Virus record (IMG/VR): IMGVR_UViG_2690316028_000008
Length of the DNA stretch: 7,242 bases
Source of the DNA: a virus
Taxonomy: Duplodnaviria; Heunggongvirae; Uroviricota; Caudoviricetes
Direction: 5' to 3' (one strand)
The translations under genes and the position numbers were made by a program. Below are positions 158 to 7,242 of this stretch, in pieces. Numbering within the stretch: the stretch's first letter is position 1; every line of letters begins with the position of its first letter. The notes below the pieces were generated by a model. That model saw nothing but the letters and a program-made list of their open reading frames with translations. It was not told where the DNA came from and made no database searches.

Positions 158-182
158 GAAGAAAGAGCCGTGCTTGCGGCTC
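158..182 (-). terminator. Candidate rho-independent terminator downstream of the OLD-family gene
   Basis: Inverted repeat GAGCCG (165..170) / CGGCTC (177..182) with a 6-nt loop. On the minus strand it starts 7 nt after the TAA stop (192..190) of the OLD-family gene and is followed by TTTCTTC (164..158). The stem is short (6 bp, 7 with a G-U pair) and the T-tract is interrupted, so confidence is only moderate. Confidence 0.5.
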
Positions 183-189
183 CAAAATG

Positions 190-1977
190 TTATAATTTCG
201 CATATATAGCATTAAACCAAGTTAATGTCTCGCCTTTTGCATCACTTGCAGTGAGCATTTGATAACTCATTTTTCCTGTAGCAAATTTATTTATCTTCTT
301 CTTCGCTTTACTTTCATTATAACGTGTTAAAGCAGATACCTCTGTTGATACATCTGTCGTATCATCTATGGTTATGTTTACACCAAACACCGCCTGAATA
401 GCATCAGGATGTAAATAATTTTCCATTTCCCTTTTTTCAGTCATGAATGCTATGGAACCATCATTTCTAGCATTTACTGACTTACATTCTTTTTCATACT
501 GAGGAGGGATGGCAACATCTCTATCATAGATGTGAACCTCAGGTTTATTTAGAATTTTTAAGTCATTATTATTAACCCAATCTTTAAGAGTATGTCCCCC
601 CATTGGAATGAAAACTATACGCGGATCATTTATCATATCAGGAACATTTGGAACACCTTGGTCGAGATAAATTTTACCGATATTCCTTAAAAAGTTTATA
701 TCATTAGGGCCTTCAACGCATACAAGAACAGATGCCCTACTATCAGGGTATACGCCAAGATCATTCGCTATGTTCTTTAGCACATCATCATTACCATTTT
801 TAACCTCTAAACCATCATCGAGTGTTCGGGTTATATGGCGTAGAGATTCTGTAGGTATCTTTTCCACAAGTGCAGGGACGTGGGTGGTAATCAATACTTG
901 GCATTTATCAGCATTTGCTAATTCTTGAAATGCATCAATAAGAAGTCTTTGATTAGATGGGTGTTGAGATGTTTCAGGTTCTTCAATTGCATAAATAACT
1001 CCTTTATCTGGGAATTCTTTTTGCAATCTTTCTGCTTCCGCTTTAAAAAAACTAATCAGGACTAAACGTCTAACACCACTACCACGTTTATTGATAGCTA
1101 TTCCTCTATCATCTTCCAATGTTAGCTTGAAAATATTTTCCCACTTAGGTTCCACTTTAAACTTTGGGATTAACCCGGCAGCAAGATTAGGAGATATATC
1201 ATGTAAATGTTTAATTGTGTTTTCAGCCACTTCAACTGCATGTTCTTTTACGCTTTCTTTAATGGATTCAAGTTGAATGTCAATCTTCTGCAATGCTGTT
1301 TGAACCGCTGACTTCATAGGATCCTGTACTTCTGATTCTTCATCGGTACTCGGCCTGTCTGCGCGGAATAATGCAAAGTGAGGGAGTTTGTCATATATTT
1401 TTTCACAAATAACCTTGCCCTCCTCAGCATTTAATTTAACGAAGATTTCTTTAAGCTTTAAATCTCCAATTTTCCTGTAAATTTCTTGTCTTAAACTAAC
1501 ATTGGACCTTTTATCAGCTCCATCAACACCAATAGATTCGGCAATTACTTTAAGTTCATCATTTTTTTTAGCAAGTAAAGATTTCGCGCCTTTTGCTGAG
1601 GGAGCCATACATTTAGCTTGAACGCTGCTAGATCCCTTACCTTTTGCAAATACTCTATATATTTCTAGCTTTCCATTACTATTTAATAAATATTCTTCTT
1701 TAAGGTTAGTTATAGATGTGGCATCCAAAACTATAGGTATATCAGCTCCTGAAAAGATACATCCAATTGACACGTCTTCATTTTCCACGCTATCGACACA
1801 TTTATCGGTAGCATCATATTTACATAGTTTATGTTCAAAGAAGACACCAAATGCGTCTAAGATAGTTGTTTTACCAACATCATTACGACCAACTAATGCA
1901 GTTAGTGAGTTAATGTCAATGCTATGTTCTCCATGATAGCCACGAAAGTTCTATAAGATTAGTTTTTCAAGTTTCAT
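190..1977 (-). pseudogene. OLD-family ABC-type ATPase + TOPRIM nuclease (class-1-like, stand-alone), frame interrupted by an in-frame TAG at codon 9
   Basis: The uninterrupted ORF 190..1788 (532 aa in the track, GTG-initiated) continues in the same frame upstream to ATG 1977..1975. That ATG has a GGAG Shine-Dalgarno (1987..1984) 6 nt upstream. My hand translation of 1977..1789 is MKLEKLIL*NFRGYHGEHSIDINSLTALVGRNDVGKTTILDAFGVFFEHKLCKYDATDKCVDS. The NFRG strand and Walker A (GRNDVGKT, 1890..1867) typical of OLD/ABC-type ATPases therefore lie upstream of the track ORF, separated from the ATG by TAG at 1953..1951. Downstream motifs are the ABC-signature-like KRGSGVRRL, Walker B VIYAIEEPE and H-loop ITTH. 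A C-terminal TOPRIM follows: VCVEGPND (Glu codon 714..712), IYDRD and EMENYL. No helicase or other partner gene is adjacent. Confidence 0.8.
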
Positions 1978-2317: not shown

Positions 2318-2980
2318 TTAGTAAAGTTCTCCAGTTCCCTGATCTACACGTTTATAGAAATCAGAAAAATTACATGGGTCAGATATAACTGAGTTTTTAT
2401 CACTACGAAAATCAAATTCTATTTTTTTTATAAGATCAATGGCTGGTATAGTCGAATTTAAAGGGATTTTTTTATAGTTTCTAATTCTGTGATATTCAAT
2501 TGAGTCTAAGTCTACTTCAATCGCTTTATTACCAAAATAATAAAAATGATCTGAAATCAACACGTTATTAGAGCTAGTATCTCGTTCAAGATTTGTCATG
2601 TTAAATGAACCATCAGCATTGCTATGATGAGAATCTTCTTGTATCCATTCATTGTTTTCATTTTGATGGTAGATATTATCGCCCAGAATTTGTACATGAC
2701 TACCATTTCTAGCAGGCTTTTTGAGAGAGAACCTGGTATCCTCCCAATAACCATTGAAACTAATTTTTTCTGAAACTTTCATTAATAGGATACATTTTTT
2801 TTTAGCTGATTTTAAATTGGCTCCACCAACTCCGAGTATCCAATCACCCACTTTAGCTGACTTTCTAATTCCAGGTTTGCATGTTGCCAAGGTACAACTT
2901 CCATGAAATGGATTAGGTGCAAAACCAAAGTCTCTCGTTATTGCATAAACATAAAGGTGTGAGTTGGGATCAATTAGCAT
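2318..2980 (-). CDS. Nmad2-family protein (nucleotide modification associated domain 2), biochemical function unknown
   Basis: 220-aa ORF. ATG 2980 is preceded by GGTGG and overlaps the upstream gene's stop by 7 nt. The N-terminal block YVYAITRDFGFAPNPFHGSCTLATCKPGIRKSAKVGDWILG matches the signature I recall for the Nmad2 family (GFAPNP...CTLA.CKP.IR...GDW). That family was defined by comparative genomics of DNA-modification gene neighbourhoods (Iyer, Aravind and colleagues, 2013). The assignment rests on motif memory plus context. Confidence 0.6.
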   Translation of the reverse strand: MLIDPNSHLYVYAITRDFGFAPNPFHGSCTLATCKPGIRKSAKVGDWILGVGGANLKSAKKKCILLMKVSEKISFNGYWEDTRFSLKKPARNGSHVQILGDNIYHQNENNEWIQEDSHHSNADGSFNMTNLERDTSSNNVLISDHFYYFGNKAIEVDLDSIEYHRIRNYKKIPLNSTIPAIDLIKKIEFDFRSDKNSVISDPCNFSDFYKRVDQGTGELY

Positions 2981-3465
2981 ACGACATTTCCACCTTGAAC
3001 TTTATCACGATCCGTACCATCAGGTTTTTCAAAGGAAGTTTTACCTTCTAGTGCGTTGATAATGGCATCACTTCTCCAGGCCACTATAGAGGTTGCATAC
3101 TTTTCGAGATTCTCTGGTAGTTTTACATCGCCTTTTAACCCATTTTCATATACACCTATGATTGGTTTTCCAAGTTGATGAGCTACTTGAATTTCCCAGT
3201 TTACCCAAGGTCTAGTATGTGTCTCTTTCCCGATAACAACTATAACTTGACTAGCCCACCTCATTTTCATTCTAAGTAAACGTGCAATCGTTCGGTCACT
3301 AAGTTTTTTTTCCTCAACTCGTCGCTGGTTTTCAGGTTTCATTCTAATAGAACTATTGCGTAAATGATAACCTTTTGCTGCAGCTAAACGAGAAACTCCA
3401 TCAACACTCGCGTCGTCTTTATGATGATGGCTAACAAAAACATTTTTCTTAATTTCTTTAACCAT
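2974..3465 (-). CDS. TIR-like domain protein of the ThsB / DUF1863 (MTH538-like) type
   Basis: 163-aa ORF. ATG 3465 has AGGA 7 nt upstream. KNVFVSHHHKDD and QVIVVIGKETHTRPWVNWEIQVAHQLGKPIIGVYEN align well by eye with Bacillus Thoeris ThsB as I recall it (KRVFFSFHYQD ... VTCVLIGSQTFNRRWVRYEIMKSIEKGNKIIGIHIN). The match includes the conserved Glu of the W..(W/Y)EI motif. Confidence 0.75.
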   Translation of the reverse strand: MVKEIKKNVFVSHHHKDDASVDGVSRLAAAKGYHLRNSSIRMKPENQRRVEEKKLSDRTIARLLRMKMRWASQVIVVIGKETHTRPWVNWEIQVAHQLGKPIIGVYENGLKGDVKLPENLEKYATSIVAWRSDAIINALEGKTSFEKPDGTDRDKVQGGNVVC

Positions 3466-3486
3466 TTTTAAATCCTTTGTAATTTG

Positions 3487-4518
3487 CTAATTATAAAATA
3501 ATTCTATATTATTGCTTTGATAATGGTATTTTTGTTTAGGCCTTTTATTGTTAAATTTAGTTCGGCATCTTTTATCTATCTCGCATGCACCACTATTTTC
3601 CATGTCCATTAAGGTGTAAACTCTTTCTTCTTTAGGCAGGAAATGGAATATTTCATCCATGTTCCAATTTTCTCTATACTTTTCAGCGATGTTATTTTGG
3701 TTTATAGTGAACCAGAATAAACACTCTTCGCTATTCATTCCATCTCTATTAGAAAAAATCCAATTAATTCCTCTTTCACAACCAGGACCTGAAATAACAA
3801 AGTTCAATTCTGTAAACGGAAAGTTGGGTATGTATGTCAGATCTATGAAAATTTGATATGCTAGAAAATCCCCAATCCCTGAGAATGATTTTAAATGTTC
3901 AAAAACTTCGAACTGATTTCCTGATGATTTTACACCATTAACGATTTTATCTTGGTTATAATAAACAAATTTTATCATTCTAATTACCATATCATTTTCC
4001 GGTATTCCTTCTATATTTTTTAAGTATTTTCCGAAGTTAAACTTCGGACCTCCTAAAATATAGGCTGCACTAAAAAATACGTAGCCTGGTTTTTTTAATG
4101 ATATGTTTATTGTCTTTTCTCTGATCTTTTCATTGATGTCGCGAATAGTCATTTTTGTGAAATCAAAGGGCGCATCAAGTTCATTTAATGTATCGCTTTT
4201 ATTTATTACTCTAAACAAAAATGAATTGAGTATTTTATTTTCATAAGTTAATTTATTGTTGTTTGTTATATTTTTCAATAACCATTTGGTTTCTTTGTCC
4301 CATGTTCTTTTAGTATTTACAAATTTATAGTTTCTCAATATTTTGTCGTCTGTCCAATATGGCGGAAGGTTAAGTATCTCTTTCTTGTAATATATGGATG
4401 TCCTCTCTCGTTGATGATAAAACCATTCCTTGATAACAGCTTCATTCAAGGTAGGTTTAGCGGTTTTAATTTTCATTTCTCTGACATTACAAAAAAGTTG
4501 ATCGTTTTTACTGTTCAC
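3487..4518 (-). CDS. aGPT-Pplase-like protein (alpha-glutamyl/putrescinyl thymine pyrophosphorylase family; putative DNA base hypermodification protein)
   Basis: 343-aa ORF. The start is either GTG 4518 (AAGG 9 nt upstream, overlapping the kinase stop by 11 nt) or ATG 4476 (residue 15). The block IYYKKEILNLPPYWTDDKILRNYKFVNTKRTWDKETKWL resembles the conserved N-terminal signature I recall for aGPT-Pplase proteins (PWT.D.IL...KF.N..R..D..T). The assignment rests on one motif block plus gene context. Confidence 0.55.
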   Translation of the reverse strand: MNSKNDQLFCNVREMKIKTAKPTLNEAVIKEWFYHQRERTSIYYKKEILNLPPYWTDDKILRNYKFVNTKRTWDKETKWLLKNITNNNKLTYENKILNSFLFRVINKSDTLNELDAPFDFTKMTIRDINEKIREKTINISLKKPGYVFFSAAYILGGPKFNFGKYLKNIEGIPENDMVIRMIKFVYYNQDKIVNGVKSSGNQFEVFEHLKSFSGIGDFLAYQIFIDLTYIPNFPFTELNFVISGPGCERGINWIFSNRDGMNSEECLFWFTINQNNIAEKYRENWNMDEIFHFLPKEERVYTLMDMENSGACEIDKRCRTKFNNKRPKQKYHYQSNNIELFYN

Positions 4519-5065
4519 TTAATAATACCTTTTCGAAGAAATGTTTAAAACTATCAATTCCGTTCACATTGTTGTCAAAATGATATTCTGATTTTGTTTT
4601 ATTCTCAGTGACATACTTGTCGATTTCGTATTTTTTATAATTATTATTTTCCCGTTCTATATGTACTATAGTGAACTGATTGTTCTTACACCATGCGAAT
4701 TCTTCATTTGATCTTATGTCAGTAATTATTATATTTTTATTCGTCCCTCCATTTTTTTCTAAAATTTTCAACTCTTCTGATAGCATTCTAATAAATATTT
4801 TTTCTTCAATTTTCCTTAGGCTGTCTAAGCTCAGCCATATATCTCTTGGTGAATGGCTGATAAAGTCGCCGGTAGGTAAGGTTATATTGAGTGGTAACAT
4901 TTTATTTTCAGGTGGGTAATCCTTTTCCATCCAAGGATAAATATAATTGGCCAATTTTTTGAGTTGATCGCTAAATGATAATCTAATAAATCCATAGTTG
5001 GATATCAGATAATTGGCAAGAAAGTCTTTTCCACTACCCGATATGCCCATGAATGCAATTTTCAT
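4508..5065 (-). CDS. P-loop kinase, deoxynucleoside-monophosphate-kinase-like (candidate 5-hm-dNMP kinase or 5-hmdU DNA kinase)
   Basis: 185-aa ORF. ATG 5065 sits in an ATGA overlap with the upstream TGA stop (5064..5062). The P-loop GISGSGKD is at residues 7-14. IIITDIRSNEEFAW resembles the D(V/I)R..NE motif of phage T4 gp1-type dNMP kinases. The substrate (free nucleotide or DNA-borne 5-hmdU) cannot be read from the sequence. Confidence 0.7.
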   Translation of the reverse strand: MKIAFMGISGSGKDFLANYLISNYGFIRLSFSDQLKKLANYIYPWMEKDYPPENKMLPLNITLPTGDFISHSPRDIWLSLDSLRKIEEKIFIRMLSEELKILEKNGGTNKNIIITDIRSNEEFAWCKNNQFTIVHIERENNNYKKYEIDKYVTENKTKSEYHFDNNVNGIDSFKHFFEKVLLSEQ

Positions 5066-6147
5066 AGACGGTCCTTATTAGAATTATTAAAATAATTAGA
5101 AGTTACGCTTAGATTGAAATCATTGCTTAACTTAGTTTTTAACACTATTGGTTGATTGAATCTTTCCTGGAAAATATATGATAGAGCTGCTTCTGCATAT
5201 CCCCAAAGTAAATTCCTTTCAGTTTCTACAAAGTGTTTAATAAATATTTTTTTTAGATTTTCGGTTTCCATATCTATTGTGTCTATTTTATGTTCATTTT
5301 CTGTTATTATTCTTTCAAGGAATGAAACTATATCACAGAATAATGATTTTATATTTTGTAACGATGGAGGGAATGATATTTCATCATCGTTTATCAAATC
5401 TGTCATTTGTTCTTCTTTTCTTTCGTATATTTCATTGGCTTGTCCTACTCTATCATCATATATATGAAGATTTGTTACTGATTGATGTAAGTATCCCAGT
5501 TTAATCTCGCTATCAACTTCCCTCTGTAATATTGAAAGTACTATCTCTTGAAGTAAACTAAACTCGAAAAGATTTATATTGCTCACTCCAAATATTAGAT
5601 CGCCGCTTCTTTGAACTATTTTAATGTTTAAATTTTTGTCAGGAGTGATAAAGAAATGAATTAAGTTATTACAAGGAATATCGACACTATGTTCTATGTT
5701 GTATACTTTTATGAGGCTTTCATTCGTATCTCTGTCAGGCATGTATAAGCTAATGACTGCTCTTCTTGTAAATATTCCTTCTTTTTTGAATTGTTGCACG
5801 ACATTCTCAAGTTGCCCGTGAGCGTATAGTCTTTCCCCATAAGCTGCTCGCCAAATGACACCATCATCTGAGTATTTAGGCGCTCTTGGTAAAAAAAAAT
5901 TTAGATATGGTTTAATTCTGTTGTCGCCAGCAAAAACCCATATAGCTTCAGCAAATGTGGAAAATATATTATTTTTTCGACCCGCTAAACTTAAATGCCT
6001 TGATCTAGGGTTTCGTAAGATCATACTAACATCATAAATAGTTATAGCATCCCCATTCCTTGTCGAAATACGAACTCCTTCATTAAGCACTTTTTCTAGG
6101 AGTTTCATTATTACATCGTTAATAGTTTCTCCGTAAATGACGTGCAT
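5062..6147 (-). CDS. Thymidylate synthase-fold enzyme, likely pyrimidine (dUMP or dCMP) hydroxymethylase homolog with C-terminal extension
   Basis: The track ORF starts at TTG 6153. I prefer ATG 6147, which has GAGG 8 nt upstream, giving 361 aa. Motifs are collinear with E. coli ThyA as I recall it: RNGDAI (RTGTGT), AEAIWVFAGD (ELLWFLQGD), AYGERL (VYGKQW), TRRAVISLY (SRRIIVSAW), DIPCNNLIHFFI (APCHAFFQFYV; Cys codon TGT 5673..5671), QRSGDLIFGVSNIN (QRSCDVFLGLPFNI) and LHIYDD (THLYSN). Confidence 0.85.
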   Translation of the reverse strand: MHVIYGETINDVIMKLLEKVLNEGVRISTRNGDAITIYDVSMILRNPRSRHLSLAGRKNNIFSTFAEAIWVFAGDNRIKPYLNFFLPRAPKYSDDGVIWRAAYGERLYAHGQLENVVQQFKKEGIFTRRAVISLYMPDRDTNESLIKVYNIEHSVDIPCNNLIHFFITPDKNLNIKIVQRSGDLIFGVSNINLFEFSLLQEIVLSILQREVDSEIKLGYLHQSVTNLHIYDDRVGQANEIYERKEEQMTDLINDDEISFPPSLQNIKSLFCDIVSFLERIITENEHKIDTIDMETENLKKIFIKHFVETERNLLWGYAEAALSYIFQERFNQPIVLKTKLSNDFNLSVTSNYFNNSNKDRL

Positions 6148-6369
6148 AAACAAAACCTCATGCTATAAAAACATCTTTTTAGTTGATATAGTTTATTGGG
6201 CCTAATCCAGAATTTGGTCCAGCTATGATCTGGACTAACCGGATAGCACGTTTCAATCTCTTGCCTCTAAGAACAGGCTCGAACGTGATAGCCAATTGGC
6301 TTCCCACTTAGCAAGTGAGACCTCGACCCACGCTACCGCCCTCAGTTGCATAGGCACTGCGTTTGTATG

Positions 6370-7057: not shown

Positions 7058-7237
7058 ATGACGATTTCCCTGCATACCACCCGGACAAGCGCCCCTAACA
7101 CCGCAGCGGCGACCAGCGTATCCCCGCTGGACCCGTCAGGCTCCTCAAAAACGAAATTTTCTAAAACCAGAACCGACATTTACCGTAAGCGTCGTCTGAG
7201 TACCGTCTGGTCCCGAATCCAGGATCCTGTAACTTAA
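7058..7237 (+). CDS. Hypothetical small protein (59 aa)
   Basis: ATG 7058 is preceded by GGAGA (7046..7050) at 7-nt spacing, followed by 59 codons and TAA 7235..7237. It falls below the 60-aa cut-off of the supplied track. Hand translation: MTISLHTTRTSAPNTAAATSVSPLDPSGSSKTKFSKTRTDIYRKRRLSTVWSRIQDPVT. The N-terminal half is Ser/Thr-rich and the C-terminal half is basic. I recognise no family, and it may not be a real gene. Confidence 0.3.
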   Translation: MTISLHTTRTSAPNTAAATSVSPLDPSGSSKTKFSKTRTDIYRKRRLSTVWSRIQDPVT

Positions 7238-7242
7238 GCACC

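Follow-up and report, generated by a model that had tools for sequence, protein, structure and literature searches.

An OLD-family gene interrupted at codon 9

The DNA analyzed here is a 7,242-nucleotide stretch (the window) filed as IMG/VR virus record IMGVR_UViG_2690316028_000008, the minus strand of which carries an OLD-family gene with an in-frame amber codon close to its start. We present the case that this gene is very probably a pseudogene, the loss-of-function allele of a stand-alone ATPase–nuclease defence gene of the OLD family residing on an integrated conjugative element (ICE), a reading that we base on sequence comparison. The frame is opened by a GGAG motif (1987–1984), a six-base spacer, and ATG (1977–1975), and this native translation start (1975–1987) was kept in every aligned ortholog, even in a 91%-identical gene located in a different genomic context. 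The ATG is followed by the codons AAA CTT GAA AAA CTA ATC TTA, by TAG (1953–1951, minus strand) as codon 9, and then by AAC TTT CGT GGC TAT. The TAG is in frame with both ATG 1977 and the Walker A P-loop GRNDVGKT (residues 30–37; 1867–1890), and it is the single interruption in a frame of 595 codons plus TAA (192–190) that spans 190–1977 and has 595-amino-acid (aa) orthologs in the database.

No in-frame ATG, GTG, or TTG was present between TAG 1953–1951 and GTG 1788, in either the window sequence or the list of its open reading frames (ORFs). This GTG (1786–1788, codon 64) is the first canonical in-frame restart codon, and the product of the corresponding ORF (190–1788), a 532-aa protein, would be devoid of the P-loop. 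The sequence thus agrees with the initial annotation, which had read GGAG, ATG 1977, MKLEKLIL, TAG 1953–1951, and NFRGY...GRNDVGKT in one frame and had noted the lack of an ATG, GTG, or TTG restart as far as GTG 1788. Its further claim that the only product made without readthrough would lack Walker A holds for canonical starts but needs correction for rare ones, since two in-frame ATT codons (1912–1920), namely codon 20 (1920–1918) and codon 22 (1914–1912), lie 5′ of Walker A. Annotators have used them as the starts of 576-aa and 574-aa products.

Predicted architecture of the full-length protein

We examined the domain composition encoded by the complete frame. Pfam AAA_15 matched residues 1–371 (E=6e-66) and AAA_21 was matched with an E-value of 4e-17. 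The ABC elements G30-x-N-D-x-G-K36 (Walker A), G299-S-G301, E332-E333 following IYAI (Walker B), and T365-H366 were invariant in 36 orthologs; in the same set, invariance extended to G30, N32, D33, G35, and K36 of the P-loop and to M1, L3, N10, and R12. In the window copy, the amber codon would keep this domain from being translated from its beginning. A sequence-profile search of the PDB gave 6P74, a class 1 OLD nuclease from Thermus scotoductus, as its best match (E=2e-18). The AlphaFold2 model, which had a predicted local distance difference test (pLDDT) score of 82.7, gave 6P74, GajA, and the retron Eco8 OLD effector as best fold matches, and the fold search also returned OLD, GajA, PtuA, Rad50, and SMC heads. 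In this model, strands β1 (residues 2–11), β2 (14–21), and β3 (25–29) precede the P-loop, and in the family profile the first ~50 residues were the part matched in the Rad50, SMC, GajA, and PtuA hits. With the AAA_15 match and with 6P74 as the best relative by both profile and fold, the assignment to the OLD family made in the initial annotation is borne out.

The C-terminal 224 aa matched nothing in Pfam even at E≤10, and in a per-member Pfam scan OLD-like_TOPRIM touched only one of the 36 orthologs (E=0.05). Since Pfam gave no Toprim match, the C-terminal domain was modeled alone and submitted to a fold search. The model (pLDDT 91.6) had as its top PDB match the C-terminal region of a Xanthomonas OLD protein (probability 0.92–0.98; template modeling score (TM), 0.41–0.49), with retron Eco2, T. 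scotoductus OLD, RecR, and topoisomerase as further matches; E-values across the top matches were modest (4e-3 to 0.9). In addition, the C-terminal ~190 residues carry invariant E-G-P-x-D and D-R-D motifs, which form Toprim-like acidic columns at E422-G-P-x-D426 (714–700) and D485-R-D487 (525–517), together spanning 517–714 on the minus strand. The modeled fold and the motifs, rather than a sequence profile, are therefore supportive of a Toprim-like domain.

To place the gene among its relatives, we scanned orthologous loci using one genome per species, which yielded 80 loci from bacteria and archaea. When the ORFs flanking these loci were clustered, the largest common neighbor family was found at only 7 of the 80. 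An Rfam scan of the window detected no families, and a literature search for the 595-aa OLD subfamily found no paper. The single-gene class of the OLD family is a known kind (PMC7049728, PMC12392090, PMC13261556, PMC11464382). Together, these results indicate that the gene is, by prediction, a stand-alone member of the OLD family, similar to class 1, that would combine an ABC ATPase with a C-terminal Toprim-like domain; ATP-dependent nuclease activity and an anti-phage function are likewise predicted for this OLD subfamily.

The amber codon is a shared change from a lysine codon

We examined 15 copies of the interrupted haplotype, including the window, records L001, L002, L014–L021, and L102, and the metagenome contigs L105 and L107. 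TAG was present in all 15, which comprised finished Escherichia coli chromosomes, chromosomes with a protein named Klebsiella pneumoniae, and two metagenome contigs. It was also found in all 12 complete E. coli genomes that have the module, and it was always accompanied by F43, S117, R431, and D472. In the table of polarized substitutions, position 1953 was T at 11 of 11 TAG-lineage loci and A at 6 of 6 intact and 2 of 2 Erwinia loci. Correspondingly, in the DNA alignment the window and a Klebsiella-sized chromosome had TTA TAG AAC, four intact alleles had TTA AAG AAC, and Erwinia had TTA AGG AAC. The intact and interrupted alleles belong to the same module and differ at 10 of 1,791 bases (99.4% identity). 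The ancestral codon 9 is AAG (Lys), and the event was a single A-to-T change, AAG to TAG (1951–1953).

These data bear on several proposals of the initial annotation. The alignment of codon 9 with orthologous loci, which it had suggested as a check, was run and gave sense codons in the relatives (AAG and AGG at the DNA level; K, E, R, or Q in the orthologous proteins). An inactivating point mutation from a sense codon, which it had put forward, matches the AAG of the 99.4%-identical alleles of the same module and the AGG of Erwinia. Its description of the mutation as a recent one survives in part: the change is very probably inactivating, but the allele is older than its spread across E. coli and Klebsiella and comprises two sub-lineages.

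A protein database search recovered full-length 595-aa proteins with 98% identity in K. pneumoniae and E. coli. The set with 100% identity consisted entirely of proteins without the N-terminus (574, 576, 578 aa, and others), one of which occurred on 169 contig blocks; overall, database proteins of the TAG allele were found on ~200 contigs, compared with ~50 for the intact allele. No haplotype intermediate between the TAG and intact alleles was found in the protein database or the metagenome contigs. All full-length orthologs begin at the Met equivalent to ATG 1977. In the species scan, 79 of the 80 loci encoded an uninterrupted protein that aligned from residue 1 and had the N-terminus M-x-L-x(6)-N-[FYL]-R. 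The full-length orthologs and the species scan led us to reject the idea, raised in the initial annotation as a finding that would count against an interrupted gene, that orthologs start 3′ of the P-loop segment and do without it.

Substitutions and further lesions in the TAG lineage and its sister alleles

Over the long term, the OLD gene has been under strong constraint, with a ratio of non-synonymous to synonymous substitution rates (dN/dS) of 0.09–0.10 against Erwinia and the 91%-identical ortholog. We polarized the substitutions using Erwinia and Phytobacter. On the TAG branch, the OLD gene had acquired seven non-synonymous changes (the nonsense mutation and six missense mutations) and no synonymous change, whereas its five neighboring genes had acquired four and eight, respectively (Fisher P=0.013). 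The dN/dS of the neighbors between the TAG and intact lineages was 0.11–0.13. Three of the TAG-derived missense changes (all on the minus strand) affect conserved positions. Y472D (TAC to GAC; 562–564), in the Toprim-like domain, replaces a residue that is Y in 36 of 36 orthologs; L43F (CTT to TTT; 1849–1851), in the helix after the P-loop, one that is L in 35 of 36; and G117S (GGC to AGC; 1627–1629), one that is G in 29 of 36. In none of these columns was the derived residue ever seen. The other three, K431R (686), K534N (376), and A568G (275), located within 274–687, are at positions that vary among orthologs. Changes on the intact branches fell at positions variable in the 36 orthologs.

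Additional lesions were detected in this gene. One contig carrying the TAG allele (P0019) had a frameshifted C-terminus as well. In Phytobacter sp. V69 (L022, 7467–9756), GGA had changed to TGA at codon 171, and an insertion of ~520 bp was present near codon 590, toward the 3′ end. In L103 (3342–5128), a 1-bp deletion had shortened an A8 homopolymer to A7, causing a frameshift; the equivalent run in the window is at 1562–1569 (codons 135–138, minus strand). The Phytobacter and L103 lesions are independent of the TAG and lie in near-identical alleles of the same gene module. Since sister alleles were thus inactivated by unrelated lesions, plain loss is indicated, and the comparison fits a dead gene that would have been lost repeatedly in the island with the adjoining operon kept.

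Loss of function as the preferred explanation

Taken together, the gene stops early in comparison with its full-length orthologs, offers no restart codon that seems adequate, and bears marks of relaxed constraint and further decay, as is typical of pseudogenes. In the proposed course of events, the A-to-T change at Lys codon 9 would cause ribosomes loading at GGAG/ATG to release the eight-residue peptide MKLEKLIL, leaving the remaining 1.76 kb of the message essentially untranslated. The ATT restarts would be poor and their products would be without β1–β2, N10, and R12, and a product begun at GTG 1788 would be without the P-loop too; given such poor in-frame restarts, a functional enzyme would not be expected. 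The mutation, which is linked to the six missense changes, presumably arose once, after which the element carried it through Klebsiella and E. coli. On the TAG branch, the OLD gene would have been free of purifying selection while the five-gene operon stayed constrained. Loss may have been favored, owing to toxicity or cost, or merely tolerated. Because the OLD gene is the last in its transcription unit, the amber codon has no downstream gene on which to exert polarity. The gene is, on this account, an ordinary nonsense pseudogene, and no new mechanism is involved.

Several observations weigh against this account or limit it. The 7:0 ratio is small and compatible with neutrality (P=0.19 for seven of seven). 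The intact alleles also show only non-synonymous changes (4–5 to 0), and fixed synonymous differences between the two lineages number zero, compared with ~5.5 expected from the synonymous rate of the neighbors (P=0.004). Relaxed constraint after the stop is therefore not the whole explanation. When the whole clade was counted (alleles at least 99.4% identical; window 190–1977 against L003–L008), the OLD gene had 13 non-synonymous changes and 1 synonymous change, compared with 13 and 22 in the neighbors (P=0.0004). A recombined OLD segment combined with fast protein change, or chance acting on small numbers, may account for the missing synonymous differences. In addition, with no intermediate haplotype found, the TAG may have arisen before, among, or after the six missense changes. 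The 586 codons 3′ of the TAG are still open, which fits a young pseudogene but also a gene in use. Finally, a low level of full-length protein may arise through near-cognate readthrough of UAG, or a trace of protein through initiation at ATT.

A proposal that we consider improbable, though milder than the safety-catch idea discussed below, keeps the loss of function and adds a cause. The three independent lesions and the all-non-synonymous pattern, seen even in intact alleles, hint that loss of the OLD gene was positively selected in the island; the gene might be at odds with the operon for thymidine-modification defence, or might interfere with the element's transfer.

Rare-start products and conditional expression

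The alternative that fared best, though we consider it improbable, is that an N-terminally shortened functional protein is made by initiation, or by re-initiation after termination, at ATT 1920 or ATT 1914. Re-initiation after early nonsense codons is known in E. coli, for example in lacI and T4 rIIB. The two ATT codons lie shortly 3′ of the TAG (at 31 and 37 nucleotides), a GGAG (1932–1929) stands 8 nucleotides 5′ of ATT 1920, and products starting at codon 20 or 22 would keep Walker A. Moreover, PGAP and other pipelines annotate such ATT-start products. The PGAP 574-aa "ATP-binding protein" WP_077258677.1 corresponds to window positions 190–1914, with its start at ATT 1914; other records start at ATT 1920 (576 aa), and proteins P0009 and P0013 begin with MDINSL and MNSL, respectively.

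Against this alternative, AUU initiates at ~0.1–3% of the efficiency of AUG even with a good ribosome-binding site, and confirmed AUU starts in E. coli are limited to infC and pcnB (bioRxiv 10.1101/063800). The GGAG before ATT 1920 is ordinary coding sequence (His-Gly-Glu) and was not kept in L009 or L011. An out-of-frame (+1) ATG (1934–1932), the first canonical start after the amber codon, lies between the TAG and the ATT codons, opens a 10-codon ORF ending in TAA (1902–1934, minus strand), and would capture scanning ribosomes. The ATT-start products would be without β1–β2 and the invariant N10 and R12, a segment that is matched in Rad50, SMC, GajA, and PtuA. None of the TAG-lineage copies has acquired a better start codon, and two conserved positions of the allele are altered by Y472D and L43F. 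Furthermore, in more recent PGAP runs this sequence is annotated as a pseudogene ("incomplete; missing N-terminus").

Somewhat less probable again is conditional expression, in which full-length protein would be made only upon readthrough of UAG, in an amber suppressor, with impaired release factor 1 (RF1), or with a phage suppressor tRNA, the stop acting as a safety catch on a toxic nuclease. P2 Old is toxic in recBC hosts. The frame is open for the 586 codons mentioned above, the native ribosome-binding site and ATG are intact, and the TAG allele is common and has spread between species. More generally, OLD-type nucleases can be toxic (PMC11464382). However, the amber codon is found in a single haplotype and not at codon 9 in the 79 other species; since it is confined to that haplotype, the supposedly programmed stop is not conserved. 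The haplotype has substitutions at invariant or conserved residues, one of its copies has a secondary frameshift, and unrelated lesions inactivate sister alleles. Natural amber suppressors are rare in Enterobacteriaceae isolates. ARAGORN detected no tRNA gene in the window, and TAG serves as the working stop codon of the 5-hydroxymethyldeoxyuridine (5-hmdU) kinase gene in the window; together with Y472D at an invariant site, these results leave the amber-suppressor background envisaged in the initial annotation without support. The specific form of this idea, in which OLD nuclease is produced when UAG decoding changes, for instance through a phage suppressor tRNA or perturbation of RF1, seems to us slightly more doubtful still; if true, it would describe a defence gene triggered by translational recoding.

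Two related candidates were tried and rejected. Programmed readthrough or recoding does not fit a stop that occurs in one haplotype only and is followed, on the TAG branch, by six missense changes and no synonymous one. An alternative genetic code with reassigned TAG does not fit E. coli and Klebsiella hosts or the use of TAG to end the kinase gene of the window (TAA in some alleles). Lastly, a sequencing or assembly error, an option listed in the initial annotation and one that might be suspected for a single base in a window resembling a short contig bounded by repeats, has next to no chance of being correct, since the same base stands in 14 other independent records, among them finished chromosomes of different laboratories and species as well as two metagenome contigs, and always comes together with the same six missense changes.

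Consequences of a probable loss-of-function allele

If the gene is a nonsense pseudogene, as we favor, a widespread ICE cargo module in E. coli and Klebsiella carries a dead OLD-type defence gene. Because RefSeq often shows it as an intact 574-aa "ATP-binding protein," automated censuses of defence systems would score this dead gene as present. Annotation is inconsistent between records, which show either an ATT-start protein or a pseudogene: RefSeq treats the same sequence as WP_077258677.1 with an ATT start in L001 (8134–9858) and as a pseudogene in L002 (8134–9882) and L102 (334–2082). The natural AAG/TAG allele pair, at 99.4% identity, could be used to study the function and host cost of this uncharacterized 595-aa OLD subfamily. 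The locus also offers a small example of the recurrent loss of one defence gene beside a conserved operon.

Genomic context

The 2.4 kb around the gene was 99.8–100% identical to sequences in 12 of 5,426 complete E. coli genomes. There, the gene is part of the cargo of an integrated conjugative element. ArdC, MobC, and a type IV coupling protein flank it on one side; on the other, the host genes cobUST and ldtA were seen in a single genome. From these components and the cobUST/ldtA flank, we infer that the element is ICEKp/HPI-like. A literature search found no paper joining ICEKp with thymidylate synthase (TS), and the module was absent from the plasmids in PLSDB.

Upstream of the OLD gene, on the same strand, lies a five-gene operon (2318–6153) encoding a TS-like protein, a deoxynucleoside monophosphate (dNMP) kinase, a 5-hmdU DNA kinase (HMUDK_hel), a ThsB-type TIR protein, and Nmad2, all of them intact. 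This operon has remained constrained (dN/dS about 0.11) next to a decaying OLD gene. The supplement of DefensePredictor gives the RefSeq accession of Nmad2, WP_023143489.1, as a "Predicted novel defense gene," and the paper itself (PMC13092281) describes a validated defence system from E. coli that comprises TS, dNMP kinase, 5-hmdU kinase, and NMAD domains. A functional linkage of the OLD gene to the Nmad2/5-hmdU-kinase operon, in which it would act as the restriction-like partner of a modification system, was rejected as a general rule, as only the near-identical Phytobacter module has those neighbors among the 80 species loci, a 91%-identical ortholog is found in another element, and no neighbor is conserved.

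A convergent five-gene cluster outside the window (L001, 3986–7889) encodes two ThsB-type TIR proteins, one TIR_2 protein, one LD_cluster2 (SLOG-like) protein, and a 242-aa protein without annotation. All copies of the module, that of Erwinia among them, retain this cluster beside the OLD gene. The 91%-identical intact ortholog (L011–L013, 8001–9788) has a different carrier, a small integrative element that also encodes a relaxase, a replicase, and an integrase, and its neighbors there are an unrelated pair, a Dcm-type methylase and a restriction enzyme of the MvaI/BcnI type. The leader of this ortholog (the last ~75 nucleotides before the ATG) aligns with the leader of the ICE copies. Since this leader aligns in a different element, the comparison suggests that the OLD gene may move as a self-contained unit. 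Within the leader region, an A/T-rich run ~30 nucleotides 5′ of the ATG (2005–2010) is without two bases in the TAG lineage (AA in intact alleles, TT in Erwinia), and the same run has a four-base deletion in some intact alleles. A terminator-like hairpin (164–183, minus strand) is located directly 3′ of the stop codon of the OLD gene.

Positions 1–57 of the window are the end of an IS3-family element (identical to L008, 2314–2371). Positions 7185–7242 are a repeat found in 525 of the 5,426 complete E. coli genomes; it cuts ardC, the 5′ end of which lies at ~7058, at 7184/7185. Both end insertions were absent from the 12 complete genomes with the module. Because both ends are termini of repeated elements, the window resembles a contig bounded by repeats.

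Comparison with known systems

The window gene most closely resembles class 1 OLD proteins, represented by phage P2 Old, T. scotoductus OLD (6P74), Vibrio cholerae class 1 OLD, and E. coli YbjD. Like them, it encodes a single polypeptide in which an ABC ATPase (AAA_15/AAA_21) precedes a predicted Toprim-like domain, has no conserved partner gene, and is located in a defence island on a mobile element. It differs in being only 12–17% identical to the solved OLD proteins, in having a C-terminal domain that the Pfam OLD-like Toprim model misses, and, for the window copy, in being a nonsense allele.

Gabija GajA (class 2) and the retron Eco8 effector (class 3) share the ATPase-plus-Toprim architecture, with Foldseek E-values of 1e-11 to 1e-14. 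Unlike GajA, however, the window gene does not adjoin a UvrD-like helicase (GajB), and unlike the Eco8 effector it is not accompanied by a reverse transcriptase or a non-coding RNA.

The PADLOC models matched were AriA, which was the best (E=3e-56; residues 1–371), Old, and GajA. AriA belongs to PARIS (AriA/AriB, class 4), the occasionally fused forms of which (PMC11464382) resemble the window gene in joining an ATPase and a Toprim-like domain in one polypeptide. The AriA match is probably generic, because the AriA model and Pfam AAA_15 are nearly equal in length and match range. No Pfam match to the PARIS domain DUF4435 turned up in the C-terminal domain or the per-member scan, and no AriA or AriB chains were among the PDB sequence or fold matches listed. 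With the AriA match confined to the AAA_15 region, assignment to a merged PARIS (AriAB) system was not supported.

The allele itself is best compared with early-nonsense pseudogenes that receive a rare-start "rescue" in databases, from which nothing distinctive separates it. In both, gene calling guided by homology lengthens the ORF until it reaches the farthest start allowed 3′ of the stop, here an ATT codon.

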